Source of the DNA: Opitutia bacterium | Lineage (GTDB): Bacteria > Verrucomicrobiota > Verrucomicrobiia > Opitutales > T3Sed10-336 | DNA: 12,176 nt | Direction of reading: 5' to 3' | NCBI GenBank assembly: GCA_050506795.1 | Contig: JBJHCF010000073.1 | Location: 1 to 12,176, forward strand | In this document: positions 1 through 12,176 of the stretch, in pieces | How the letters are laid out: each line of letters starts with the position of its first letter | Position numbering within the stretch: position 1 is the first letter of the stretch | Made by a program: the position numbers and the translations under genes | The notes under the pieces: model-generated | Seen by the model: only the letters and a program-made list of their open reading frames with translations | What the model was told of the DNA's origin: nothing | Databases searched by the model: none

Positions 1-83
1 CCCCACCCCCCCCCCCCTCTCCTCGTCGCCCGCTTCATAAGTGTAGACGCGACATCCTCTAACTCTCTCACGCCCCCCCGCGG

Positions 84-174
84 CTCGACCCTCGCCCCCT
101 CGCCCCCTCGCCTCTCGCCCCTCGCCCCCTCGCCCTCTCGCCCCCTCGCCCCCTCGCCCTCTCGCCTCTCCCCC
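84..174. repeat. C-rich tandem repeat, about 11-12 copies of a 7-8 bp unit (consensus CTCGCCCC)
   Basis: Units read directly: CTCGACC 84-90, CTCGCCCC 91-98 and 99-106, CTCGCCT 107-113, CTCGCCC 114-120, and so on to CTCGCCT 161-167, then a degenerate CTCCCCC. Confidence 0.9.
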
Positions 175-204
175 CTCTTCCCGCGTCCCGCGCCGGAATT
201 TGTT

Positions 205-232
205 TTGACTTTCAATCCCGCAGGAAAAAGCT
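205..232 (+). promoter_or_regulatory. possible sigma70-type promoter for the mre operon
   Basis: TTGACT at 205-210 in a locally AT-rich stretch about 95 bp upstream of the mreB ATG. The -10 candidate (AAAGCT, 227-232) is weak. Confidence 0.3.
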
Positions 233-304
233 GGAATCCGATCCCTGGAGACCTGCCGAACGGCAAAGCGTCTGGTCCGGGGCAAATTCGGATCCAACTC
301 GATC

Positions 305-1339
305 ATGGCAGGAAAGTTTCTCGGCATATTCTCCGAAGATATCGGAATCGATTTAGGCACGGCCAACACGCTGGTCTTCGCTAAAGACAGAGGAGTGGTA
401 CTCCGGGAACCCAGCGTGGTCGCCATTCACGCCAACACCCGCAAAGTTTTGGCGGTGGGCTCGGAAGCCAAGATGATGCTGGGCCGGACCCCCGGCAACA
501 TCATCGCGATCCGTCCGATGAAGGACGGGGTAATCGCCGATTTTGATATCACCGAGGCGATGTTGCGCTACTTCATCAAGAAGGTGCACAACAACGTAAA
601 AGTGATCCCACCTCGAGTGGTGGTCGCCATTCCCTCCGGCATCACCGAGGTCGAGAAGCGCGCGGTGAAAGAGTCGGCCATCCATGCCGGAGCCCGGGAA
701 GTCCTCCTGCTGGAAGAACCGATGGCGGCGGCGATCGGCGTCGGTTTGCCGGTGGAGGAACCCGCCGCCAATATGATCGTCGACATCGGTGGCGGCACCA
801 CCGAAGTGGCCATCATTTCGCTCGCCGGCGTCGTTTTTTCAAAGAGCATTCGGGTCGGCGGCGACGAGTTCGACACCGCGATCATCAACTACATGAAGCG
901 CGCCTACAACCTGATGATTGGAGAACGGACGGCGGAGGAGATCAAACTCCGAATCGGTTCGGCCTACCCGCTTGACGACGAGTTGAGCATGGAAGTAAAA
1001 GGTCGCGATTCGGTGGCCGGGCTTCCCAAAACCCTGCATGTGAGTTCTCAGGAGATCCGGGAAGCTTTGGCCGATACCGTGAGCTCGATTGTCGAGTTGG
1101 TCCGCAACGCGCTGGAACGTTGCCCCCCCGAGCTTTCCGCCGACTTGGTGGACAGGGGTTTTATCCTAGCCGGAGGGGGCGCCCTCCTGCGCAACCTGGA
1201 TCGCCTGCTCAGTGAGGCCACCGGGCTGCCTGTGGTGGTGGCGGAAGACGCCCTGAGTGCCGTGGCCATCGGGACCGGTGCCGTTCTCGAAGACTTGAAT
1301 TTCCTGCTTCTCCACGTCACATCGTCCTCGAAATCCTGA
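305..1339 (+). CDS. mreB: rod shape-determining actin-like protein MreB
   Basis: 344 aa with the actin-fold motifs [41 protein letters not shown] and GGGALL. First gene of the mreBCD cluster. Confidence 0.99.
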
Positions 1340-1348
1340 TTCCAAGCA

Positions 1349-2200
1349 TTGGCCATCAGACGTCTTGTTCCATCCCGGCCATTTTTCGTCCTAGCCGTTG
1401 TCATTGCACTTTGGCTGGTGTTGCCAGTGATCCTCAAAACCCTGTTGCGAACGGGATTTCACGAATTGCATGCGCCGGCGGTTCAGGCCGTGTCGTTGAT
1501 TCGTGACGTGCAGGATTACTGGTCCTACCGGGCGCAATCCAAAGACGATCTGATTGAAGCCATCAGGGATCTCTCACGCCAGCGTGCTCATGACGAAATT
1601 CGCCTGCAGGAGGCCGAGGCGCTGGAACGCGAGGTGGCCCGACTGGAGGAGCTGCTGGAAATCCCTCCCATCCCGGGATACCGTTTCGAAATCGCCCGGG
1701 TCGCCCGCCGCGAAACCGGCGTCTGGTGGCAGCGAGTCACCATTCGCAAGGGCCGGAATCACGGCCTGTCTGCGGGAGCTCCGGTGATTTTCAGCGGAGG
1801 AGTCGCCGGGAAGATAACCGAGGTGTATCGAAACACCGCGGTGGTGGAACTGATATCCAGCCCGGCCTTCCGCCTTTCCGCCCGCATCGAGGGTGACGAT
1901 CGTCCCATCAGCTACCAGGGTGCGTTGGCCCCGCCCTTTGCCCCGGCCGTGGGAGTGGCGGAATTCGTTCCCCTGGACACTCGCACCGACTCCTCCAACG
2001 CGCCCCGCTTGGTGACTTCCGGACTTGGGGGCGTCTTTCCCCAGGGGTTATTCATCGGAGAACTGAGTTCGCTGGAGCCCAGTCCGGACGGGCTGTTTCA
2101 AACCGGCAGAGTGCGTCTCGACCAGAGTCTCAACCGCCTGTATGAGGTCGCGGTGCTCATTCGGGAAACCGGGGAGGGGGATGACCCGCCAACCCCATGA
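1349..2200 (+). CDS. mreC: rod shape-determining protein MreC
   Basis: N-terminal TM helix, coiled coil (LEREVARLEELL), then a beta domain with TIRKGRNHG and LVTSGLGGVFPQGLFIG. Directly follows mreB. The TTG start is slightly uncertain. Confidence 0.95.
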   Translation: MAIRRLVPSRPFFVLAVVIALWLVLPVILKTLLRTGFHELHAPAVQAVSLIRDVQDYWSYRAQSKDDLIEAIRDLSRQRAHDEIRLQEAEALEREVARLEELLEIPPIPGYRFEIARVARRETGVWWQRVTIRKGRNHGLSAGAPVIFSGGVAGKITEVYRNTAVVELISSPAFRLSARIEGDDRPISYQGALAPPFAPAVGVAEFVPLDTRTDSSNAPRLVTSGLGGVFPQGLFIGELSSLEPSPDGLFQTGRVRLDQSLNRLYEVAVLIRETGEGDDPPTP

Positions 2201-2727
2201 GCATCCAGCTGAGAACCGTCGTGCTGATCGGGGTCGGAGTGTTGTTTCTGCTGCTTCTGGCCGAGACCAACCACCACCTGGCATATTTCAACCTTCATAT
2301 TTACGCCGCCGGTCTTCTGTTGGCCTTCCCGCTTCTGCGCCTGCGGTACAAACAGGGCCTGATTTTCGTCTGTCTGATGGCCTTCTTCCACGACATCATG
2401 GCTCCTCTTCCCTTCGGGGCAAGTTTTGTCCCGTTCCTGCTGGCGCATACCGTAACCTATGTCCTCCGTTCGCATTTCCGGCGGGAGGAAGCCACGGCCG
2501 GTATCGCCTACGCCCTGCTGCTCAACACCCTTCTCTTCCTTGGATTCGCCTTTCGCGGCATGGGAGAGGCTCCTTTGCCCGGCCTGTACTGGCAAAGGGT
2601 ACTCGTCGACGGAATCCTGTCCCAGGGGGTCGTGATTTTTATCGCTGGATGGTATTTTTCGCTGCAAGATACAGCTTTGAGATTTTTCGGAATCTTTCTC
2701 GATCAGGAACAACGCCAGGCAGGTTAA
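2197..2727 (+). CDS. mreD: MreD-like polytopic membrane protein
   Basis: 176 aa with about 5 hydrophobic segments. ATGA overlap with the mreC stop, and position between mreC and PBP2. The call rests mainly on synteny. Confidence 0.8.
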   Translation: MSIQLRTVVLIGVGVLFLLLLAETNHHLAYFNLHIYAAGLLLAFPLLRLRYKQGLIFVCLMAFFHDIMAPLPFGASFVPFLLAHTVTYVLRSHFRREEATAGIAYALLLNTLLFLGFAFRGMGEAPLPGLYWQRVLVDGILSQGVVIFIAGWYFSLQDTALRFFGIFLDQEQRQAG

Positions 2728-2746
2728 ACCTGCCGGTCCGCAATTG

Positions 2747-4645
2747 ATGAACCAGCTTCTGGAAAGCCATAAGAACTACAACCCACGCCTGCGGCTTTTT
2801 TACGGCGTGGTAGTCGTCCTTATCCTGGTCCTTCTCGGCGGCCTCACCTACCGGCAACTCATCATCGGCACCCTGTACAGCGACCGCGAGGAGTTGCAGA
2901 ATCTGCGCCGCATCCTCGTGCCCGGACCCCGCGGCAACATTTTCGACCGCAACGGGGAATTGCTGGTAGGCAACCGCCCCCGGTTTGCGGCCGTGGTCTA
3001 CCTGGCGGAGCTACGACAGGAGTTCCGGCAGGAATTTCGCGACCTGAGGAGACCTTACCTCGAACAGAACATTCCCACAACAGGCGTTCCCCTCCCCAGC
3101 ATGGCGCGCGCGGCGGTGATCCAACGTTATCTCGACCAGATCAACGACCTCCTGGGTCGCGACGAGCAAGTTGACTCCCGGCTGCTGGAGAGGCACTTGC
3201 GCCAACAGTTGATCCTTCCCTTTTTCCTGGTCAACGACCTGTCCCCGGAAGAGTACGCCCGGTTGCTGGAGCAGATTCCCATCGACTCTCCCATCCAGGT
3301 CTACAGTTCCAGCGTTCGCCACTACCCGCATGGCCCGGCCGCAGCGCACGTTCTGGGGTACGTCGGTTCGACTCTGGAAATTCCTGAGGAGGGGGTTCCG
3401 GGCGAACGTCTCATGACCTTCAATATTCGCGGCAGCATCGGACGCGATGGGTTGGAAAGGTCCATGGATGATCGCATCCAGGGACAGACCGGGGGTGAAA
3501 TCTGGGTCGTGGATCCGGACGGCTTTCAATTCGAACGCATCGATCGGAAGCGTTCGGTGCAGGGCGAAGACATCGTCAGCAGCCTGGATATTCGCCTGCA
3601 GAAGCGCATGGAGGATTTGCTGGGCGGTTACACCGCCACCGCCGTGGCGCTCGACCCCCGGAATGGAGAGGTTCTTGCCCTGGCCACCAGTCCGGGCTAT
3701 GACCTCAACGATTTCACTCCCTCCCTGCCCGGCCCGGTCGTGACGGAGATCACGGAAACACAGGCGTGGACGAACCGCGCCTTGCAGGGGTTGTACCCAC
3801 CGGGTTCAACCTTCAAAATGGTCACCGCGATGGCGGCGCTGCGGGCCGGGGTGGTGGATGCCCGCACCACCTCCTTTTGCCGCGGTTCCCACCAGGTATC
3901 CGGCCGAACGTTCCATTGTCACAACCGCGCCGGACACGGAGAGGTCGACCTGGTGCGGGCCTTGAGCGTGAGCTGCAACGTCTATTTCTACGAGCATGGC
4001 GTTCGCACAGGGATCGAATCGATCGCGGCCGAGGCTCGCCGCTTCGGTCTGCATGAGCAAACCGGCATCGAACTGCCGTTTGAAGCGCGGGCCATGCTGG
4101 TCGGCACTCCTGAATGGAAGCGACGGGTGCACGGGACCGCCTGGTTTCCCGGCGACACCGCCAATGTCTCAATCGGCCAGGGCGACGTTCGCAGCACACC
4201 CCTGCAAATGGCCGCCCTGACCGCCGCCCTGGCAACCCGCCGTGAATCGGTGCGCCCTACCATTCTCCTGAATGGGAATCGCGGCCAAACCCATGGATTC
4301 CGGCCGCTGGAAATCAAAGACGCCCATTACGAATTAATCATCCGCGGCATGATCGACGCCGTTGAGTCGGGGACCGCGCGCAGCGTTCGTCTGCCGGGGG
4401 TGTCCATCGCTGGAAAAACCGGTACGGCGCAGGTGCCAACCCGCGAAGGCCGGCTGCATATGGCGTGGTTCGTCGGGTTCGCCCCGGTGGAGAATCCCGA
4501 AATCGCCATCGCGGTTCTGGTGGAAGGCACCAATCCCAACGATAATTTCGCCGGAGGTTCCACCGCCGGGCCCATCGCCCGTGAAATCCTCCGGGAATAT
4601 TTCTCTCATCGCGAACCGGAACCGCTGGCACATTCCCAACGATGA
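2747..4645 (+). CDS. mrdA: penicillin-binding protein 2 (elongasome class B transpeptidase)
   Basis: N-terminal TM anchor, PRGNIFDRNG and RHYPHG motifs, and the catalytic motifs SxxK (GSTFK), SxN (SCN) and KTG (AGKTGTAQ). ATG 2747 is preferred over TTG 2744. Confidence 0.97.
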   Translation: MNQLLESHKNYNPRLRLFYGVVVVLILVLLGGLTYRQLIIGTLYSDREELQNLRRILVPGPRGNIFDRNGELLVGNRPRFAAVVYLAELRQEFRQEFRDLRRPYLEQNIPTTGVPLPSMARAAVIQRYLDQINDLLGRDEQVDSRLLERHLRQQLILPFFLVNDLSPEEYARLLEQIPIDSPIQVYSSSVRHYPHGPAAAHVLGYVGSTLEIPEEGVPGERLMTFNIRGSIGRDGLERSMDDRIQGQTGGEIWVVDPDGFQFERIDRKRSVQGEDIVSSLDIRLQKRMEDLLGGYTATAVALDPRNGEVLALATSPGYDLNDFTPSLPGPVVTEITETQAWTNRALQGLYPPGSTFKMVTAMAALRAGVVDARTTSFCRGSHQVSGRTFHCHNRAGHGEVDLVRALSVSCNVYFYEHGVRTGIESIAAEARRFGLHEQTGIELPFEARAMLVGTPEWKRRVHGTAWFPGDTANVSIGQGDVRSTPLQMAALTAALATRRESVRPTILLNGNRGQTHGFRPLEIKDAHYELIIRGMIDAVESGTARSVRLPGVSIAGKTGTAQVPTREGRLHMAWFVGFAPVENPEIAIAVLVEGTNPNDNFAGGSTAGPIAREILREYFSHREPEPLAHSQR

Positions 4646-5400
4646 AAAACGGAAATGACGATGCCTGCGCGTCGGGAGGTGAGGTCGATTCGCGGTCACT
4701 CCAGACGCTGCAAGAAAAAATTGGATACACTTTCAGCGACCTCGATCTTCTTCGGCAAGCGGTCACCCATCCCTCCCACCAACCGGATGCTCCCGAGTCG
4801 GTTCGGTCAAACAATCAGCGCCTGGAGTTTCTGGGGGATTCGGTTCTGAGCCTGGTTCTCTCCGAACAACTGTTCCGGCGATTCCCCGACGTTCGCGAAG
4901 GACAATTGAGCCGCTATCGCTCGAACCTGGTTCGCGGCCCCGTGCTCAGCGACCTGGCACGGCGGTTGCGCATCGGCGATCACCTGCATTTAAGCCGGGG
5001 CGAAGCCGAAACCGGCGGTCGGGACCGGGACAATCTGCTGGAGGACGCCCTCGAAGCGCTCCTCGGCGCAATTTTCATCGACGGAGGCTTCAACGCCGCC
5101 AAACGCGTAGCGCTCCGCTGGTACTCGGATCTGGAAACCCGCCTGGAAGAAGCGGACAGGATCGACAATCCCAAGGGGCGCTTGCAGGAGGCTATTCAGG
5201 CCGAACACCCCGGTGAAGGACCGGAATACCTAACCCTCTCCGCAGAGGGCCCCTCTCACCAACCCAGCTTCGAAGTGGAAGTCAGCTTTCGCAACCGACC
5301 GCTGGCCCGCGGACGAGGCGCCTCCAAAAAGGAAGCCGAATCGCGCGCGGCGAACTCCGCCCTGCAGCAGTGGATCGAAAACTCCGCAACGCAACGCTGA
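4642..5400 (+). CDS. rnc: ribonuclease III
   Basis: RNase III signature NQRLEFLGDS, DALEALLGAIFID, and a C-terminal dsRBD (NPKGRLQE...GRGASKKEAE). ATGA overlap with mrdA. Confidence 0.97.
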   Translation: MKNGNDDACASGGEVDSRSLQTLQEKIGYTFSDLDLLRQAVTHPSHQPDAPESVRSNNQRLEFLGDSVLSLVLSEQLFRRFPDVREGQLSRYRSNLVRGPVLSDLARRLRIGDHLHLSRGEAETGGRDRDNLLEDALEALLGAIFIDGGFNAAKRVALRWYSDLETRLEEADRIDNPKGRLQEAIQAEHPGEGPEYLTLSAEGPSHQPSFEVEVSFRNRPLARGRGASKKEAESRAANSALQQWIENSATQR

Positions 5401-5507
5401 ATCGGTTTCCCTGCCCGGATTCCTTCGACGCCGTCAATCGCCTCAGATTGAGACAAACCGGCTTGCTCGCGAGTCGTGCGGAAATAAGGTGACGTTGCCT
5501 GAACACC

Positions 5508-8500
5508 ATGCCGTCCACCACCGAAAAGAGTAATCGCACCGCAACCGCTGTCCCGCTGACCGGACATACCGGGGTCATCCCGGCGGCATCCCCCGCGGTG
5601 ATCACTCGCCTGCTGCGGGAGGAGACCGGAAACCTTTTTCTCGTGCTCTGCGCCGACCTGCCGACGGCGGAGCGCCAGGGGGAAGCGCTCGACTCGTTGT
5701 TCGCGCTGACCTCGCCGGAGCAGAAGCCCCGGACCGTTCTGCTGCCGCCCGGCGGTGACGAGAGCGGCCGCGATCAGGAAACGGACGCCGATCGCCTGCA
5801 AGTGTTCAACCTCCTGCGGGAACACCTCGAACGGAAATCGCCGGACCCATTGATCGTGGTGACCACCCCGACCGCCGTTCTGGGGCCGGCACCGGATCCC
5901 GCCTTTCTGAAGCGATCCGAAATTCGCGTTGTCGCCGGCGACGACCTGCCCTTCGAGGGCTTTGTGGAAACCCTTCGCCAACTCGATTACGATTCCGAAA
6001 CCGTGTGTGAAAGCCCGGGGCAATACGCGGTCCGCGGAGGAATCATCGACGTGTATCCGCTGGCCGCCGACACCCCCTATCGCATTGATTTTTTCGGCGA
6101 CACGGTTGAGGAAATTCGGGCCTTCGATCCGGCCGACCAACGTTCGGGAGAAAGGGCTTCGTCCATCCTGATCTCTCCCGCGCTCCCCCGGCTTCTCCGC
6201 GAAAAGCCGACGCAAACCAGCGCCTACCTCGGTGAATCCACCACCTGGATACTGCTTCACCCGGAGACATGGGAAAAGGCGCCGATCGAGAACACCAAGG
6301 CCGCTTCTTCGACCGCCGACCTTCTGGCCTCCCGCCGGGAGTTCGCCGACGCCTGGCACATCATCAGTGACCTGGACCTTCCGGCCGACCTTCCAGTTCC
6401 CTCCGGTCCGCTTCGCGAATGGAGAACCGAAGCCCTTGACACCCACCGGCGGAACCCCGAGTGGGATGGTGCCGTGAGCGACGCGCGGGCAGGCGAAGAC
6501 GAAGCGCGGCGCCGCTTTTTCGATCAACTTGCCAACTGGCGCCGCGAAGGATTTGCGGTCGCCCTTTTCACCAACAACGAGGGCGAGGAGTCCCGCTTGC
6601 GGGAGATCCTGGAGGAATGGGGTCTGTTGAAGGCCGTGGATCCGGTTTTCGTGCGAGGGGGGCTCGGCGAGGGATTTCTCCTCCGTGACGCCTGGGGTCC
6701 CGCCGGCGAGAGCAGGTCGTCCACCGTCGGGTTGGTTGCCGTTTCCGACAGTGAAATCTTCGGCCGTTACCGGCGCCGTCGGCCGCTGCGGACCAACCGC
6801 AAGCGCGTCCAACGCACCCAGGTCGAACACCTGCTCGACTTCTCGGAACTTGGCGAAGGCGACTACCTGGTGCACCTCCAGCACGGGATCTGCCGTTTCC
6901 GGGGAATCAATCCGATCGTTTCCCGCGGAGAGCGCCGGGAAATGATCTCCGTTGAGTTCGCGGACGCGGTCACCCTGCACGTACCCTTTCATGAATCCCA
7001 CCTGCTCACCCGTTACGTCGGTCTGTCCAAGGCCCGCCCGCCGCTCGGTCGAATCGGATCGGGAAGCTGGGAGAAGACCCGGCGCGCCGCGGAAAAGGCC
7101 ACCCTCGATTTTGCCGCCGAGTTGCTGCGCACCCAGGCCCTGCGGGACAGCCGGGACGGCGTCTCCTATCCTCCGGACGATTCCTGGCAGAAGGAGTTCG
7201 AGGCGGCGTTTCTGTACACCGAAACCCGTGACCAATTGCGGGCGGCGGCCGAGTGCAAGGCAGACATGGAAAAACCTCGTCCAATGGACCGCCTGCTCTG
7301 CGGAGACGTCGGTTTCGGAAAAACGGAGGTCGCGATGCGCGCCGCCTTCAAAGCCGCCATGGGCGGAAAACAAGTCGCGGTGCTGGTCCCGACCACGGTG
7401 CTGGCTCAGCAACATTTGCAGAGTTTCCGCGAGCGCATGGCGGATTATCCGGTGATCGTGGACATGCTCAGCCGGTTTCGCACCCGGCCCAATCAGAAAT
7501 CGGTGATCCGGGCGCTTTCCCAGGGAAAGATCGATATCATCATCGGAACCCACCGCCTGCTGAGCGCCGATGTTCGTTTCCGCGACCTCGGTATGGTCGT
7601 AATCGATGAAGAACACCGCTTCGGACTGCGACAGAAGGAACAGTTGAAAAAAATCAGGGAATCCGTGGAGGTCCTTTCGATGAGCGCCACGCCTATCCCC
7701 CGCACGCTTTACCTCGCCCTTTCCGGCGCGCGTGATTTGAGCGTCATCGAAACACCCCCGGCGGATCGCTTGCCGATACGGACCATCGTGCGCAACTACG
7801 ACCCGAATTTGATTGCCGACGCCATCCGCTTCGAACTGCGGCGCGGCGGACAGGTATTCTACCTGCACAACCGGGTGGACACCATCGAATCCGTCGCCGC
7901 CCGACTGCAAGACCTCGTCCCCGAAGCCACGTTTGCGGTCGGCCACGGTCAGATGGGGGAAGGGGCGCTGGAGCGGATCATGACCGATTTCACCGCCGGA
8001 CGCTACGACGTGCTGGTTTCCACCACCATTATCGAGTCGGGATTGGACATCCCCAACTGCAATACTCTCATTGTGGAAACAGCTGATCGTTTCGGCCTTT
8101 CCCAGCTCTATCAGTTGCGCGGGAGAGTCGGCCGCTTCAAACAACAGGCCTACGCCTACCTGCTCCTGCACCGGCACGGTCGCGTGCACGAGATCGCGCG
8201 CAAACGGCTGGCCGCCCTGCGGCAGCACAATCAACTCGGAGCCGGCTTCAAGATCGCCATGCGGGACCTGGAACTGCGAGGGGCTGGAAACCTGTTGGGA
8301 GCTAAACAAAGCGGACATATCGCGGGCGTGGGTTTCGACCTTTATTGCCAGCTCTTGCGTCAGAGTATCGCCCGCCTCAAGGGAGACAAAACCGCCGCGG
8401 CCATTCGAGCCACCCTGAGGATTGATTTCATTCACACCGGCGAAGGCCGGGCCGAAAAGACCTTGACCGCCGACCGCTTCGGCGCCCTGAAGGAAGTGGA

Positions 8501-8885
8501 ACGGCAACAAGGGAGCTGTCCGCCGATCGAAGCGAGGATCCCGGAGGAGTATATTCGTGAGATGCGTCTGCGCCTCGACACCTATCGCCGCCTGGCCATG
8601 GCGGCAACCCCGCAAGAGGTCGACGCACTCCGCGCAGAGTTGACCGATCGTTTCGGGCACCCTCCCCCTGCGACCGAAGCCCTGATTCGCGCTTCGACGA
8701 TTCGTTGTCTGGCCGAACAAAAAGGAATTCTCGCGGTCGAAACAGATGGGAACCGCCTAAAATGTTTGCGGGCGACAGGCAAGGAAAACGACTACCTGCG
8801 GGTGGGCAATCGCTTTCCCCGCTTGACGCGCCAGAAGGCACTTCCAAGACTCGGCGAGATCGCCGATTTTATAAAACGCATCTGA
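5508..8885 (+). CDS. mfd: transcription-repair coupling factor Mfd
   Basis: UvrB-homology segment (PGQYAVRGGIIDVYP), CarD-like RID (DYLVHLQHGICRFRG), helicase motifs GDVGFGKT, DEEHRFG, SATPIPRT and QLRGRVGR, TRG motif (RDLELRGAGNLLG), and a C-terminal TRCF domain. Confidence 0.98.
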   Translation: MPSTTEKSNRTATAVPLTGHTGVIPAASPAVITRLLREETGNLFLVLCADLPTAERQGEALDSLFALTSPEQKPRTVLLPPGGDESGRDQETDADRLQVFNLLREHLERKSPDPLIVVTTPTAVLGPAPDPAFLKRSEIRVVAGDDLPFEGFVETLRQLDYDSETVCESPGQYAVRGGIIDVYPLAADTPYRIDFFGDTVEEIRAFDPADQRSGERASSILISPALPRLLREKPTQTSAYLGESTTWILLHPETWEKAPIENTKAASSTADLLASRREFADAWHIISDLDLPADLPVPSGPLREWRTEALDTHRRNPEWDGAVSDARAGEDEARRRFFDQLANWRREGFAVALFTNNEGEESRLREILEEWGLLKAVDPVFVRGGLGEGFLLRDAWGPAGESRSSTVGLVAVSDSEIFGRYRRRRPLRTNRKRVQRTQVEHLLDFSELGEGDYLVHLQHGICRFRGINPIVSRGERREMISVEFADAVTLHVPFHESHLLTRYVGLSKARPPLGRIGSGSWEKTRRAAEKATLDFAAELLRTQALRDSRDGVSYPPDDSWQKEFEAAFLYTETRDQLRAAAECKADMEKPRPMDRLLCGDVGFGKTEVAMRAAFKAAMGGKQVAVLVPTTVLAQQHLQSFRERMADYPVIVDMLSRFRTRPNQKSVIRALSQGKIDIIIGTHRLLSADVRFRDLGMVVIDEEHRFGLRQKEQLKKIRESVEVLSMSATPIPRTLYLALSGARDLSVIETPPADRLPIRTIVRNYDPNLIADAIRFELRRGGQVFYLHNRVDTIESVAARLQDLVPEATFAVGHGQMGEGALERIMTDFTAGRYDVLVSTTIIESGLDIPNCNTLIVETADRFGLSQLYQLRGRVGRFKQQAYAYLLLHRHGRVHEIARKRLAALRQHNQLGAGFKIAMRDLELRGAGNLLGAKQSGHIAGVGFDLYCQLLRQSIARLKGDKTAAAIRATLRIDFIHTGEGRAEKTLTADRFGALKEVERQQGSCPPIEARIPEEYIREMRLRLDTYRRLAMAATPQEVDALRAELTDRFGHPPPATEALIRASTIRCLAEQKGILAVETDGNRLKCLRATGKENDYLRVGNRFPRLTRQKALPRLGEIADFIKRI

Positions 8886-8908
8886 CACATCGCTCATCAA
8901 ACTCATTC

Positions 8909-9913
8909 ATGTTCCGCATCGCCGCTTCAATCTCAAGCCACTTACGCCGTTCCACCTCAGGGATCGTGCTGGCGCACCTGCTGCTCACAGTGCCGGCGGC
9001 GGGACAACCGGCGGCATTGCTACCCCGGGATAACGTCGAGGTGGACAACGCCATCGCGGTCGTGGTCGAGGATCAGGTCATCACCTACCAGGATGTGCGT
9101 AACGAAGCCGCGCGACTGGCGGATCAGGTCCGGCGGACCAGCCGCAACGCCACTGAATTTCAGCAACGCATGCGTGAACTGGAACGAGAAATCATCCAGG
9201 GCAAAATCGACCGCATCCTGATCATAAAGGCTTTTGAAGACAAAGGCATGCAGATTCCGGCCAGTTTTATCGACAACGAGATCAACGAGATCCTGGTGCG
9301 CGATTTTGATGGAGACCGCAGCCGGCTGCTGGCCTACCTGCGGGAAAATGGTATGTCCAGGAGCGACTTTCGCCAGGAGACACGCAAAGAGATCATTCTC
9401 CGCTACATGAGGAGCCAGATGCGCCAGTCCGAAGCGGTCGTCAGTCCTGTGCGCATCGAGGAATTTTACCGGGATAACCCGGAACGCTTTCACCGGGAAG
9501 CGGCGGTGCATCTGCGCATGATTCAGCTGGGTGGCGCCAATGCGCGCCAGACGGCGACCCAAATCATCACGGCATTGGAGGATGGGGCCGATTTTGCCGA
9601 ACTCGCCCGCGAACACAGTCGCTACCGGCGACAGCAGGGCGGAAGTTGGGGATGGGACAATATGTCGAACCTGCGGGAAGACTGGCGGGAAATTGTCGCC
9701 TCTCTGGCTCCCGGCGAACACAGCGCCCCGATCGAGGCGGGAGCCGGCGACATCTTCATCCTTTACGTCGAAGACCGGCGCGAAGCCGGGGTGGCGCCCC
9801 TGCAGGAGGTTCGCGAAGAGATCGAAGAGATCCTGGTGAACCGAATGGCGCGCGAAGCCCAGGAACGATGGCTGGAACGCCTCCGGCGCGACGCCTTTGT
9901 GCGCTATCACTGA
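8909..9913 (+). CDS. SurA/PrsA-like periplasmic foldase (SurA N-domain plus one parvulin domain)
   Basis: NAIAVVVEDQVIT (SurA-N like), GADFAELAREHS...GGSWGW (parvulin) and a C-terminal WLERLRRDAFVRY helix. Start placed at ATG 8909, just after the mfd stop and ahead of a signal-peptide-like segment. Confidence 0.88.
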   Translation: MFRIAASISSHLRRSTSGIVLAHLLLTVPAAGQPAALLPRDNVEVDNAIAVVVEDQVITYQDVRNEAARLADQVRRTSRNATEFQQRMRELEREIIQGKIDRILIIKAFEDKGMQIPASFIDNEINEILVRDFDGDRSRLLAYLRENGMSRSDFRQETRKEIILRYMRSQMRQSEAVVSPVRIEEFYRDNPERFHREAAVHLRMIQLGGANARQTATQIITALEDGADFAELAREHSRYRRQQGGSWGWDNMSNLREDWREIVASLAPGEHSAPIEAGAGDIFILYVEDRREAGVAPLQEVREEIEEILVNRMAREAQERWLERLRRDAFVRYH

Positions 9914-10016
9914 CCGGTTCAAGTCAACCCGGACCGAACGATCGCAATTTACGTGTTTGGATCAAATGGATGAATCTTAGGGAGATGTCCATTCAGGCAA
10001 GAACTCCGAGAACCTG

Positions 10017-10036
10017 AGTCGGCGCTGCCGATTTTT
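10017..10036 (+). terminator. possible intrinsic terminator after mfd-surA
   Basis: GTCGGC-GCT-GCCGAT stem running into a short T tract (TTTTT 10032-10036). The stem is short. Confidence 0.4.
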
Positions 10037-10040
10037 CCAG

Positions 10041-10070
10041 TTGACACCCCCTGTCATTCCCTGTGATTTT
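10041..10070 (+). promoter_or_regulatory. promoter of the tRNA pair
   Basis: Perfect TTGACA at 10041-10046, with TGATTT/GATTTT 17-18 bp later, about 17 bp before tRNA-Lys. Confidence 0.6.
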
Positions 10071-10086
10071 CACCTCTTTTCCTGTT

Positions 10087-10162
10087 GCCTCCCTAGCTCA
10101 ATTGGCAGAGCAGTTGACTCTTAATCAATTGGTTCCGGGTTCGAGTCCCGGGGGGGGTACCA
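10087..10162 (+). tRNA. tRNA-Lys (anticodon CTT)
   Basis: Acceptor GCCTCCC/GGGGGGT, D-arm GCTC/GAGC, anticodon arm GTTGA-CTCTTAA-TCAAT, T-arm CCGGG-TTCGAGT-CCCGG, encoded CCA. 76 nt. Confidence 0.97.
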
Positions 10163-10165
10163 GCC

Positions 10166-10238
10166 GCCGGCGTAGCTCAATTGGCAGAGCAACTGATTTG
10201 TAATCAGTAGGTTGCGGGTTCGAGTCCCATCGCCGGCT
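10166..10238 (+). tRNA. tRNA-Thr (anticodon TGT)
   Basis: Acceptor GCCGGCG/CGCCGGC, anticodon arm ACTGA-TTTGTAA-TCAGT, T-arm GCGGG-TTCGAGT-CCCAT (one C-A mismatch). Followed by CCC rather than CCA. Confidence 0.96.
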
Positions 10239-10288
10239 CCCTAAAGGGCAAAGACTTACAGAATCCCGCCCCGAAGAAAAAAAAGACG

Positions 10289-10310
10289 CTTGGCCACTTC
10301 TTGGCCACTT
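10289..10310. repeat. perfect tandem 11-bp direct repeat CTTGGCCACTT x2 (candidate tyrosine-integrase arm-type sites)
   Basis: Copies at 10289-10299 and 10300-10310, about 50 bp from the tRNA 3' end and preceded by an A8 tract (10277-10284). The repeat is certain and the function is inferred. Confidence 0.7.
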
Positions 10311-10321
10311 TCGCGACCGCC

Positions 10322-10452
10322 CTTCGCCTTCGGCAGCTCCCGAATCTTCCCATCCCTACCCGTCCTGGTCTCCGCTTCCGCCGCCTTCCTACAAGCTGGT
10401 CTCCCACCCCACACAACTCCGCAATCGCCCGGTCGGATAGGTCCGGGAATAG
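10322..10452 (-). pseudogene. HTH gene fragment D with an internal frameshift
   Basis: LFPDLSDRAIAELCGVGDQLVGR (HTH pattern) in one frame, continuing as AEAETRTGRDGKIRELPK in another frame. No credible start. Confidence 0.6.
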
Positions 10453-10640
10453 CCCCCCACGCTCCCCAGGTTGCCCCAGGAATCGCTTGCCCGGTCTGGG
10501 TGCGATACCCAACACCCCGGCCCGGAAACCGCATTTTCCGCTTGCGCCGCATCCGGCCCCGGGGTCAACCTCCATCGGTTGCCCCCAAACATGGACGGCC
10601 CGTTTAGGGGTAGGCGGGTCGTCCACCGTTTTCCCGGGTT

Positions 10641-10784
10641 CCCCGCCCGTTTCACCGTCTCCCGAGAAACCCCGTGCTTTTCGGCCAGGGTGTCGGCGGT
10701 TTTGGCGGGCTCACTTTGAGCACCCGAAAAGTCCCGCCCTTCGCGTCCTCCGGCTGGCTTCTTCGCCCTATTGTAAATCCGGCC
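10641..10784 (-). pseudogene. HTH gene fragment B (ParB-like phage protein type)
   Basis: Reads GRIYNRAKK-PAGGREGRDFSGAQSEPAK-TADTLAEKHGVSRETVKRAG. Paralogous to 10885-11031. Confidence 0.7.
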
Positions 10785-10864
10785 GCTCCCGGGATAGACG
10801 GGACAGGGTGTAGGAACGGGAGGTGCCGTGTGAAGGATCAAGGCTTATATTACCCTGGTCCTTC
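10774..10864 (-). pseudogene. gene fragment C (putative phage DNA-binding protein piece)
   Basis: Reads KDQGNISLDPSHGTSRSYTLSRLSRERPDL. Fused in frame to fragment A, and overlaps fragment B out of frame through the shared GGCCGGATTTA. The family assignment is from recollection of similar phage motifs and needs a search. Confidence 0.45.
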
Positions 10865-10866
10865 CC

Positions 10867-11049
10867 CACCCTCTCGGCAAACTGCCCCGCCCGCTTCACC
10901 GTCTCCCGTGAAACCCCGTGCTTTTCGGCCAGGGTGTCGGCGGTGGAAATCAAAGGCTCATTTTGTGCTTTTGATTCTTCGCTCTTCCTGTCCCCTCCGT
11001 GCGCCTTCTTCGCCCGGTTGTAAATCCGGCCAAGGATAAGGCGGAAGTT
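10867..11049 (-). pseudogene. HTH gene fragment A (ParB-like phage protein type)
   Basis: Reads NFRLILGRIYNRAKK-AHGGDRKSEESKAQNEPLIS-TADTLAEKHGVSRETVKRAGQFAERV. Preceded by an in-frame TGA (11050-11052) and has no ATG, so it is N-terminally truncated. Confidence 0.7.
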
Positions 11050-11077
11050 TCACCCCGTGCGCGCGTGCGAGTTGCTA

Positions 11078-11266
11078 CTACTCCGGCAACGCGACGTCAC
11101 CACGGCAGAAGCATTCCCACAGCTCCAGGGTCGACGGCGCAGGTAGTCCGGGTTCGATGTTCAGCGCCGTTTCCGCCTGGTCCATGATCGCCCGTTTCTC
11201 CCGGTCGGAAAGTCCGTTCCACCAGAGTTCGGCGCAATCGCTCCGGGTGAATGTGGTCCTGCTCAT
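11078..11266 (-). CDS. hypothetical 62-aa protein
   Basis: ATG start, protein-like composition (WWNGLSDREKRAIMDQAE), tandem TAG TAG stops (11075-11080), same strand as the capsid gene. No clear RBS. Confidence 0.5.
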   Translation of the reverse strand: MSRTTFTRSDCAELWWNGLSDREKRAIMDQAETALNIEPGLPAPSTLELWECFCRGDVALPE

Positions 11267-11269
11267 CTC

Positions 11270-11303
11270 AAAAAAGCCGCCCTGGTGGGAACTCCAGGAC
11301 GGC
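11270..11303 (-). terminator. intrinsic terminator downstream of the capsid gene
   Basis: Minus strand GCCGTCCTGG-AGTTCCCA-CCAGGGCGGC-TTTTTT: a 10-bp stem with one G-U pair, followed by U6. Confidence 0.85.
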
Positions 11304-11460
11304 CTTTAGGACTTATATGCCCCGCGTGGATAGCGCGGGAAGTGGGTGCCGGAGGTTGGCTAGACCCCCGGCTGAATCCCTAGACCGGCCAAGGTCCGTT
11401 TGCTCCGGCATTTCCGCCAAGTCATGCCGGTGGGATGTAGTTATGATGGTTTTATCCATC
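11270..11460 (-). ncRNA. candidate structured RNA or 3' UTR of six consecutive hairpins
   Basis: Stems at 11445-11460, 11405-11430, 11382-11397, 11348-11372, 11320-11340 and 11276-11303. Non-Watson-Crick positions in four stems become G-U pairs on the minus strand. Confidence 0.45.
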
Positions 11461-11472
11461 GAAAGGTTTAGT

Positions 11473-12174
11473 TTAGGACTGATTTCCATCGTCGGTTGAA
11501 ACCGCGAAGGACTCAGGATGCCTGACGGCAATATCGGCGGCGGCCAAGACCGTCACGCCCAGCATTCCGCGCCGGTGAAGTGCCGAAGACTGGTCGATCA
11601 AAAGCTCGATACCCCCGAACAGCAAAACCATGAGTTGAGCCCAGTTTCCGAAAACCGCCCGGTTGGCAAAGTCGGTTCCGGACATTTGAGACGAGACGTG
11701 TAGCGGATAGTCGTTTGCCTGATTGCCCGAAGCCAGGAACAATCCGCTGCCGGTGTCCTTGCTGGTGGCCTTCCATTTCCCCTTGACGGTCGCGGAGGTG
11801 ATCCAGGCCAAACGGCCCATCTCGTCTTGCTCCTGGATCTTGCTCTCGAATTCAACGATCTTCTCCCAGGTAGGTGAACCGCCGAAAGAAACCGTGTTGA
11901 TGCCGCTGGTCGACGTATCCAAACGGAAAACACCTTTCGGCTGTCCGTTGGTCCCGGTACCGACCAGACCGGCCCGGTCGATACCGATGTTCAGACGCCG
12001 AAGCAATTCCTGCCTGACGAACGCTTCGGCGTCCAAGTCGGTACCAATGACCAGTTGCCGTGAAATCTCCGTGTAAGCGGAGACCCGATGCGGAGTGCCC
12101 ATGACGTCGCCGGTTCCGGGTGTCGACTCCGGCACCTCGGCACCTTCAGCCAACCAGTGAACCGTCGCGCCGGT
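11473..12174 (-). CDS. HK97-fold phage major capsid protein, 3' part (5' end outside the window)
   Basis: The frame stays open to the window edge: TGATVHWLAEGAEVPES...PHRVSAYTEISRQLV...AVFGNWAQLMV...DIAVRHPESF, all typical HK97-family capsid segments. TTG 12153 is an internal Leu. Confidence 0.92.
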   Translation of the reverse strand, partial: TGATVHWLAEGAEVPESTPGTGDVMGTPHRVSAYTEISRQLVIGTDLDAEAFVRQELLRRLNIGIDRAGLVGTGTNGQPKGVFRLDTSTSGINTVSFGGSPTWEKIVEFESKIQEQDEMGRLAWITSATVKGKWKATSKDTGSGLFLASGNQANDYPLHVSSQMSGTDFANRAVFGNWAQLMVLLFGGIELLIDQSSALHRRGMLGVTVLAAADIAVRHPESFAVSTDDGNQS

Positions 12175-12176
12175 TT

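Follow-up and report, generated by a model that had tools for sequence, protein, structure and literature searches.

An in-gene palindrome in the linker codons of phage ParB-like helix-turn-helix proteins, and two cut-down copies in an integrated element of an Opitutia bacterium

Module copies and dyads near the end of contig C73

The window analysed here is the entire contig C73 (JBJHCF010000073.1; 12,176 nt) of an Opitutia bacterium belonging to the Opitutales. Near its right end the minus strand carries two diverged tandem copies (A and B) of a small coding module, made of a helix, a flexible linker and a helix-turn-helix (HTH), within an element integrated at a tRNA gene; a third copy is found on contig C39 of the same genome. 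A first-pass annotation, made from the letters of the window, had reported a long imperfect palindrome (dyad) in each of three variable linkers and had taken them for captured operator-like sites. The relatives of the module, phage proteins with a ParB-like domain, carry a palindrome at the same place of their linker codons, and we consider it probable that the dyads of A and B are degenerate members of this family-wide feature, serving as docking site for an HTH dimer and present here in cut-down gene copies (open reading frames, ORFs). The features involved are the following.

11043 to 10768, minus strand: module copy A, reading ..NFRLILGRIYNRAKK-AHGGDRKSEESKAQNEPLIS-TADTLAEKHGVSRETVKRAG-QFAERV.., then 30 further codons and a stop
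10768..11037, minus strand: ORF A, 89 aa only if the ATC at 11037 is the start, otherwise a 61-aa ORF from the TTG at 10953
About 10790 to 10635, minus strand: module copy B, reading GRIYNRAKK-PAGGREGRDFSGAQSEPAK-TADTLAEKHGVSRETVKRAG, then unrelated sequence
10389..10841, minus strand: ORF B, 150 aa from a TTG start, in a different frame from ORF A
10885..10944, minus strand: HTH-coding repeat of copy A (repeat search)
10641..10700, minus strand: HTH-coding repeat of copy B, which has 97% identity with that of copy A (10885-10944)
10785..10884, minus strand: unique 100 nt, the tail of ORF A (QFAERVGKDQGNISLDPSHG...), with no counterpart in B or C39
C39:52808 to 52620: third module copy, 69 aa if an ATC serves as start
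10948..10976: dyad A, 11/13, with core GCaCA-AAA-TGAGC and outer arms of the ATCAAR..YTTGAT class
10701..10729: dyad B, 10/13, with a perfect core GCTCA-AAG-TGAGC and poor outer arms
10832..10864: dyad C, 10/12 with a 9-nt loop, overlapping the TTG start of ORF B (10841)
C39:52705-52733: dyad of the C39 linker, 11/13

On recount, the dyad sequences, coordinates and match counts of the first-pass annotation were exact (A 11/13, B 10/13, C 10/12), and A and B are indeed centred on the minus-strand AQ(N/S)EP codons, in the linker between conserved flanks. Its three variable linkers are only two in the window: dyad C lies outside the linkers, in the unique 100 nt that follow the HTH of A, and the true third linker is the one on C39. 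A core GC(T/a)CA-N3-TGAGC is common to A, B and C39. Scored at a codon anchor (base 1 of the codon that follows a conserved Gln), A reaches 10/13, B 9/13 and C39 11/13, with 12 informative pairs because the innermost is usually loop.

Dyads of such quality (at least 10/13, with a loop of 0-12 nt) are common: 100 dinucleotide shuffles give 19.7 ± 4.4 distinct centres and the window itself 28, and the region 10241-11070 holds five of them against 1.34 expected, a number reached by 1.4% of 500 shuffles. When the codons were resampled synonymously, the 11/13 of dyad A was reached in 0/300 sequences with host codon usage and in 2/300 with uniform usage (p=0.040 with 12-nt arms), and the score of dyad B in 38/300 and 18/300, respectively (p=0.114 with 12-nt arms). 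Dyad C is a chance dyad (p=0.08), an equal one being present in 15 of 198 100-nt windows of housekeeping genes. The observation is partly confirmed: dyad A is unusual, and B, not significant by itself, is meaningful only through its relatives, standing as it does at the same codon-anchored position as their dyads; the evidence from the window alone would be weak. In the 4.94-Mb genome the core palindrome occurs 5 times where about 4.7 sites are expected, and so shows no enrichment. None of A, B and C is listed by a consensus terminator scan, whose two sites are 10307-10291 and 11057-11042, and a scan of 10000-11500 against Rfam 15 passes two tRNAs only, with nothing on the dyads at E<=1 and weak chance matches elsewhere. 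The promoter scan gave no sigma-70-like promoter in 10000-11600.

The module copies combine near-identical and unrelated parts. Copy A is composed of MLGRIYNRAKK, the linker AHGGDRKSEESKAQNEPLIS, the HTH and QFAERV, and it shares with B direct repeats of 60 nt (97%, the HTH part) and 38 nt (84%, the GRIYNRAKK part) at a spacing of 244-247 nt. In copy B no protein conservation extends beyond RAG, after which the frame differs between B and C39, and 10241-10640 looks like a patchwork of open frames without family matches. In this stretch, between copy B and the tRNA, the peptide ..GGLFPDLSDRAIAELCGVGDQLVGRRRK.. (10380-10480, minus strand, in the frame of the ORF 10204-10626) resembles an eroded HTH; it has no family match. 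The C39 copy has the upstream flank of A, B-type flanks and a linker of its own. Outside the core the three linkers are unalignable, and their alignment scores to a foreign protein (98, 61 and 94) stand against 30-42 among the copies. Since the linkers are far closer to foreign proteins and the flanks are near-identical, we infer that old linker types have been shuffled by recombination. To this extent the earlier description as cassettes with recombination handles was right. The flanks, however, are not mere handles: they differ at 6 of 87 nt among A, B and C39 and all six changes are synonymous, for which the chance probability is P ~4e-4 when the synonymous share of possible flank changes is 0.272. 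The window copies are either mini HTH genes without the N-domain (A and C39 needing an ATC start) or recently disabled remnants.

A palindrome at a fixed place of the family's linker codons

An exhaustive phmmer search gave 579 cluster representatives at E<=1e-3, of which 150 matches were listed. The full-length form has a ParB-like N-domain (..DGHNRY..NQLGRRNLTP..), a bridging helix GRxYNRxKK, the linker, the HTH and a C-terminal enzyme domain, which among 10 scanned relatives was Dam in four, MT-A70 in two, HNH in one and not recognised in three. The N-domain of the relatives matches a solved ParB-domain nuclease (PDB 5k5a) at 4.9e-5. Full-length genes are mostly found in phage replication modules, with helicase and primase flanking them in four of the eight loci with scanned neighbours (L027, L034, L050 and L062). 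The module itself has the signature GRxYNRxKK, a linker with a conserved Gln, and the HTH TAxxLAxxHGVSxxTVKRAG, and it is present in A, B and C39, which match the family profile at 9.7e-29 (positions 95-153), 4.6e-14 (positions 100-146) and 3e-18, respectively. The ParB-like N-domain is absent from the window copies, which cover profile positions 95-153 only, and as to the C-terminal enzyme domain, Pfam gives only weak HTH matches in ORFs A and B. The DNA of the relatives was gathered from genome, metagenome and viral contigs, the single-protein scans covering one genome, one viral and 10 metagenome loci; a tblastn search of deposited phages gave three weak unannotated matches, which were not used.

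Forms that lack the N-domain are found elsewhere too. Among the 150 matches listed, 18 have the module at their very beginning (from residue 3 or earlier), and several have a Met exactly where A and C39 have ATC (MLGRRYNRAKK.., MGRIYNRAKK..). Four metagenome contigs (L015-L018; e.g. L018 2674-3462) hold the same decayed stretch with the end of a ParB domain, two linker-like segments that each contain a dyad with GATC, and broken HTHs, a further case of linker-dyad repeats that have eroded. At another locus (L019 492-980) a tRNA-Leu(CAA) gene has, at a distance of about 130 nt, a module cut at both ends that shows two Gln-Asn linker motifs; the layout is convergent, as in the window.

The dyad of the linker is a general property of these genes. 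Counted strictly at the codon anchor, 59 of the 93 profile hits (duplicates included) have at least 9/13, and in most of the remaining ones the palindrome is offset by a few bases. For a comparison with synonymous resampling we took the best dyad with 12-nt arms in 87 distinct linkers, 84 of them foreign: it scores at least 9 in 84/87, when the mean of the null is 7.46 and that of other windows of the same ORFs 7.45. The p value is 0.05 or less in 74 linkers, with the floor of 0.005 reached in 33, and in 66 the linker dyad outscores all other windows of its own ORF. Some are strikingly regular, such as a perfect 13-3-13 palindrome (L012) and one of 12/13 (L014). The first-pass annotation had itself proposed to compare homologous linkers with codon-shuffled controls, and the outcome bears out its idea that the linker is constrained as nucleic acid and not only as protein: relatives keep the dyad at the same place, with different letters and above the synonymous controls, so that this constraint is both correct and general.

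The pattern of changes points in the same direction. Pairing was examined in 69 ungapped rows of 29 nt, which were picked by best dyad and are thus biased toward structure, a bias that the anchored count above does not have. Paired cells make up 83.9% of these rows, against 48.5 ± 1.3 in shuffles and 29.7-41.0% with slid partners; doubly changed cells number 307 against 100.8, and compensatory changes are seen in 12 of the 13 pairs. As the centre falls on a first codon position, position 1 pairs with position 1 and position 2 with position 3, by which synonymous sites become fixed. Along these lines, the codon after the Gln has T as third base in 65/69 rows and a variable second base (giving Asn, Ser, Ile, Phe or Val), which is the reverse of ordinary coding constraint. 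In the predicted structure of module A (pLDDT 69.7 overall) the linker is the low-confidence stretch, with 50-59 against 82-85 in the HTH, and would be able to tolerate the amino-acid changes that a DNA site imposes.

These results bear directly on the origin that the first-pass annotation had proposed, by which the linkers would be captured foreign sites, operators that act as decoys or sensors for phage repressors or replication proteins, with the HTH-coding flanks as mere handles. The mosaic of three old linker types within near-identical flanks would suit such capture, a satellite-like element must cope with helper phages, and a cloned fragment of gene O with its iterons does silence lambda replication (PMC3349717). 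We regard this origin as very improbable, because the dyads belong to the family itself (84/87 linkers have one at the fixed codon position), all three copies carry one core matched to their own HTH type, and the flanks are under protein-level constraint, as judged by their synonymous changes. The array reduces to just two copies here and one on C39; the module profile has no match at E<=1e-5 in any of 400 other genomes sampled from the same order, and in the related element of a same-genus genome this slot is filled with other cargo. As native sites, the dyads may still have a decoy role.

Core, recognition helix and the form of the site

The inner half-sites of the palindrome vary among relatives, and the cores are found with particular recognition helices, as listed below.

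GVSRET (GVSRETVKR in A, B and C39): core GCTCA-N3-TGAGC, in L012, L034, L006, A, B and C39
V(D/N)EKT: core GGACA-AAA-TGTCC
xATVER: core CCTCA..TGAGG
SPAT and SAPT: core GATCA..TGATC
SHDTI: core CAGA-AT-TCTG

At matched identity of the N-domain, core identity is 0.74-0.92 between proteins with the same helix and 0.38-0.66 between those with different helices, and the partial correlation of helix with core is 0.49, against 0.26 for N-domain identity alone. The palindrome is thus most likely the DNA site of the protein's own HTH, the binding of the two being putative. In the explanation that we favour, a dimer of this HTH would read the palindrome as duplex, so that the gene encodes its own docking or operator site; the inner 5-bp half-sites follow the recognition helix and the outer arms fall into old linker classes. 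The window copies, having neither ParB nor enzyme domain, would then be members of this family placed in the variable cargo end of a satellite-like element, their linkers shuffled by recombination.

Stems of 12-13 pairs with compensatory changes might also be expected of a palindrome that acts as a folded single strand, either an mRNA hairpin by which translation would be slowed or regulated between the domains or a DNA hairpin or cruciform in replication or recombination. The outer arms vary freely with the symmetry kept, identical HTHs are paired with different outer arms, the full-length genes often lie between helicase and primase (the four loci of eight mentioned above), and the predicted RNA hairpins of A, B and C have energies of -5.3 to -15.0 kcal/mol, all of which would agree with folding. 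We find this unlikely, however. G-U wobble is very rare among the paired cells of the 69 rows, and on the coding strand A.C mismatches outnumber G.T ones (34 vs 10), the reverse of what an mRNA hairpin predicts; both facts argue against such a hairpin. Many of the dyads have a loop of just 1-3 nt, the folding energies of the whole linkers are ordinary when compared with synonymous resampling (A, p=0.52; B, p=0.64), no Rfam family matches, and the inner half-site, with relatedness matched, changes with the HTH helix.

A number of observations weigh against a docking site for the protein's own HTH in the form set out above. One helix, SEAT, occurs with both GGTCA and GATCA, and the adjacency of linker and HTH means that the association of helix and core could partly be co-inheritance. 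Since identical HTHs go with different outer arms, the HTH cannot account for the symmetry of the outer 7-8 bp. The exact core is found once only, inside the gene, in seven of nine viral records (of the other two, one has a single copy elsewhere and one has none), and there is no dispersed set of exact 10-nt cores in these nine records, many of them fragments, or in the bacterium's own genome. As to the window, the core of dyad A has one pair broken by a synonymous GCT to GCA change, dyad B alone is not above chance (p about 0.06-0.13), and dyad C, as said, is at chance level. The profile search of the 4.94-Mb genome recovered no full-length family member, only the three module copies within profile positions 95-153, and A and C39 have no ATG, GTG or TTG before the module. 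The selection of the 69 rows by best dyad belongs here too.

Several of these facts can be read as plain decay, that is, as fragments of a dead ParB-methylase gene at the end of a prophage, in which the dyads are fossils that have not yet eroded. The missing canonical starts of A and C39, the missing ParB and enzyme domains, the loss of a common frame after RAG between B and C39, the broken core of A and the outer arms of B at 10/13, together with the patchwork of open frames at 10241-10640 and the truncated copies found elsewhere by tRNA genes or in decayed arrays (L019; L015-L018), all favour it. It is a serious possibility, although one that we hold to fall short of an even chance, given that the six flank differences are all synonymous (P ~4e-4 if random), that the module frames are still open, and that standalone proteins beginning with the module are present in databases. 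Decay is compatible with the family-level part of the explanation that we favour and differs from it only on present function.

The integrated element and comparison with known systems

The module copies are the last genes of a mobile element, adjoining the tRNA. The other features of the window are these.

1-9913: mreB, mreC, a PBP2-type transpeptidase, RNase III, mfd and a SurA-like isomerase (Pfam)
3' of 9913: tRNA-Lys, then tRNA-Thr (ARAGORN)
10166..10240, plus strand: tRNA-Thr(TGT) (ARAGORN)
10196-10240: att repeat, the final 45 nt of tRNA-Thr, 100% identical to C44:36927-36883
10287..10311: 25-nt box with a small hairpin, repeated with 100% identity at C44:37080-37056, close to where the element has its integrase; it may be a terminator or an arm site for a recombinase
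10307 to 10291, minus strand: terminator-like site of the consensus terminator scan, the number of such sites being not above shuffles
11078..11266, minus strand: 62-aa ORF, with a conserved counterpart of 70 aa in the related element of a same-genus genome
11473..12174, minus strand: C-terminal part of a prohead-protease/HK97-type major capsid fusion gene, which continues on C44

The counterpart of the 45-nt att repeat on contig C44 adjoins a tyrosine integrase gene, and C73 shares the 127 nt at its right end with the end of C44. Repeat and overlap together delimit an element of about 8.9 kb integrated at tRNA-Thr, which spans 10196-12176 of the window plus C44:36883-43912. Its genes are the integrase, a 203-aa ORF, an excisionase-like HTH (HTH_17), primase-helicase genes, two small ORFs (one of them a weak match to the small terminase), the prohead-protease/HK97 capsid fusion, the 62-aa ORF and finally the module copies. 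The capsid part is supported by Pfam PF05065 (2.1e-24) and phrog_617 (6.8e-42) at the C terminus, with an S78 protease in the N-terminal part. No portal or tail genes were found in the ~8.9-kb element, which by its gene content looks like a capsid-encoding phage satellite. The idea that integration had split a gene was rejected, as the modules are about 400 nt away from the att core.

A second related, mosaic element is found at tRNA-Ser(TGA) on C39 (C39:52131-52890), and the final 99 nt of C39 are identical to C73:11033-11131. Against a chromosomal read depth of 13-15, the A-specific piece stands at 10.7 and 11018-12176 at 21.9; the roughly twofold depth of the latter over the A-specific piece fits two element copies with common sequence from about 11033 on. 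No joints were seen when the contigs of sequencing run X1 were aligned to 9900-12176. A same-genus genome has a related element at the same tRNA-Lys/tRNA-Thr site (L114, G171:C165 3446-4800), and what fills the slot of the modules there is a homologue, of 70 aa, of the 62-aa ORF, together with a 71-aa ORF and a convergent pair of small ORFs (102 and 88 aa); this different cargo indicates that the tRNA-proximal end of the element is a variable cargo region. The convergent pair might be of the toxin-antitoxin kind, by impression only.

Some further observations concern the neighbourhood. Between the capsid gene and the 62-aa ORF lies a GC-rich hairpin followed by TTTTTT (11272-11310, minus strand; dyad centre 11289.5), which is not among the sites of the consensus terminator scan. 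A capsid fragment of 61% identity is found at the end of contig C1 (C1:314208-314885). Antisense to mfd there is a 1154-aa open frame (5256-8720, minus strand) without family match, most likely a by-product of high GC.

There is one more, and more novel, reading, in which the element would keep mini-genes of reader plus site, without the N-domain, as a swappable kit (the same HTH with different old-class palindromes) that intercepts the ParB-methylase or ParB-HNH proteins of incoming or helper phages. The cassettes would be exchanged via their conserved flanks, and either the sites would act as decoy docking places or the truncated readers as dominant-negative competitors, in a manner resembling the silencing of lambda by a cloned gene-O fragment with iterons. 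We take this reading to be quite unlikely.

The first-pass annotation knew of no described system of this kind, which is too strong, as precedents exist in ori-lambda, which is part of gene O, and in a parS site within parB. The parS-359 site lies within the parB gene of B. subtilis (PMC4442127). The ParB/Spo0J-parS system and the present family agree in having an HTH protein of the ParB family and a palindromic site that is also present within the gene of this protein; here, in contrast, the site has 27-29 bp and is always in the linker codons, and the window copies are without the ParB N-domain. The 16-bp canonical parS consensus has no match in the window at up to three mismatches, and no ParA-type domain was found in the ORFs of the window or the element.

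In the case of lambda, the iterons fall in the linker-coding part of gene O. The iterons of ori-lambda within gene O are four 18-bp repeats accompanied by an AT-rich tract; gene and site specificity can shift together, and a cloned gene fragment that bears the site interferes with incoming phage (PMC3349717). In both systems a DNA-binding protein has its sites within the sequence that encodes it, but a module of the present kind has a single palindrome and lacks an AT-rich tract (the GC content around the dyads being 0.52-0.69), and the proteins are unrelated.

Phage proteins with a ParB-CTPase fold fused to DNA methyltransferase or HNH domains have been surveyed (PMC12704722); the main text of that survey names no DNA target, does not contain the word stem 'palindrom' and, as to function, proposes no more than anti-defence or phage-host roles. 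This architecture is also that of the full-length relatives, which are likewise borne by phages or prophages, whereas the window holds the middle module only. Our literature search found no description of a linker palindrome for ParB-methylase or ParB-HNH proteins.

Integron attC sites, finally, lie between genes and have conserved core motifs; they are imperfect palindromes that vary in sequence with their symmetry kept. They resemble the linker dyads in being variable, symmetry-keeping palindromes tied to swappable units, but here a phage-type tyrosine integrase, which acts on a tRNA site, is the recombinase, and no attC core motif is visible in A, B or C.

For the window, the result means that what appeared as operator-like dyads are inherited features of a family in cut-down gene copies, not a new kind of operator array. 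For the family it may reach further. Phage fusions of the ParB fold with DNA methylases or HNH nucleases are common, and a linker palindrome whose place is fixed and whose core varies in step with the HTH helix offers a concrete candidate target for each of these enzymes. It suggests that the codons of a flexible linker can serve as a cis-acting DNA site as well, reader and site then travelling and diversifying together. If this is true, the whole class of phage ParB-effector enzymes may carry the loading site in its own linker codons, inherited with the enzyme as one unit.

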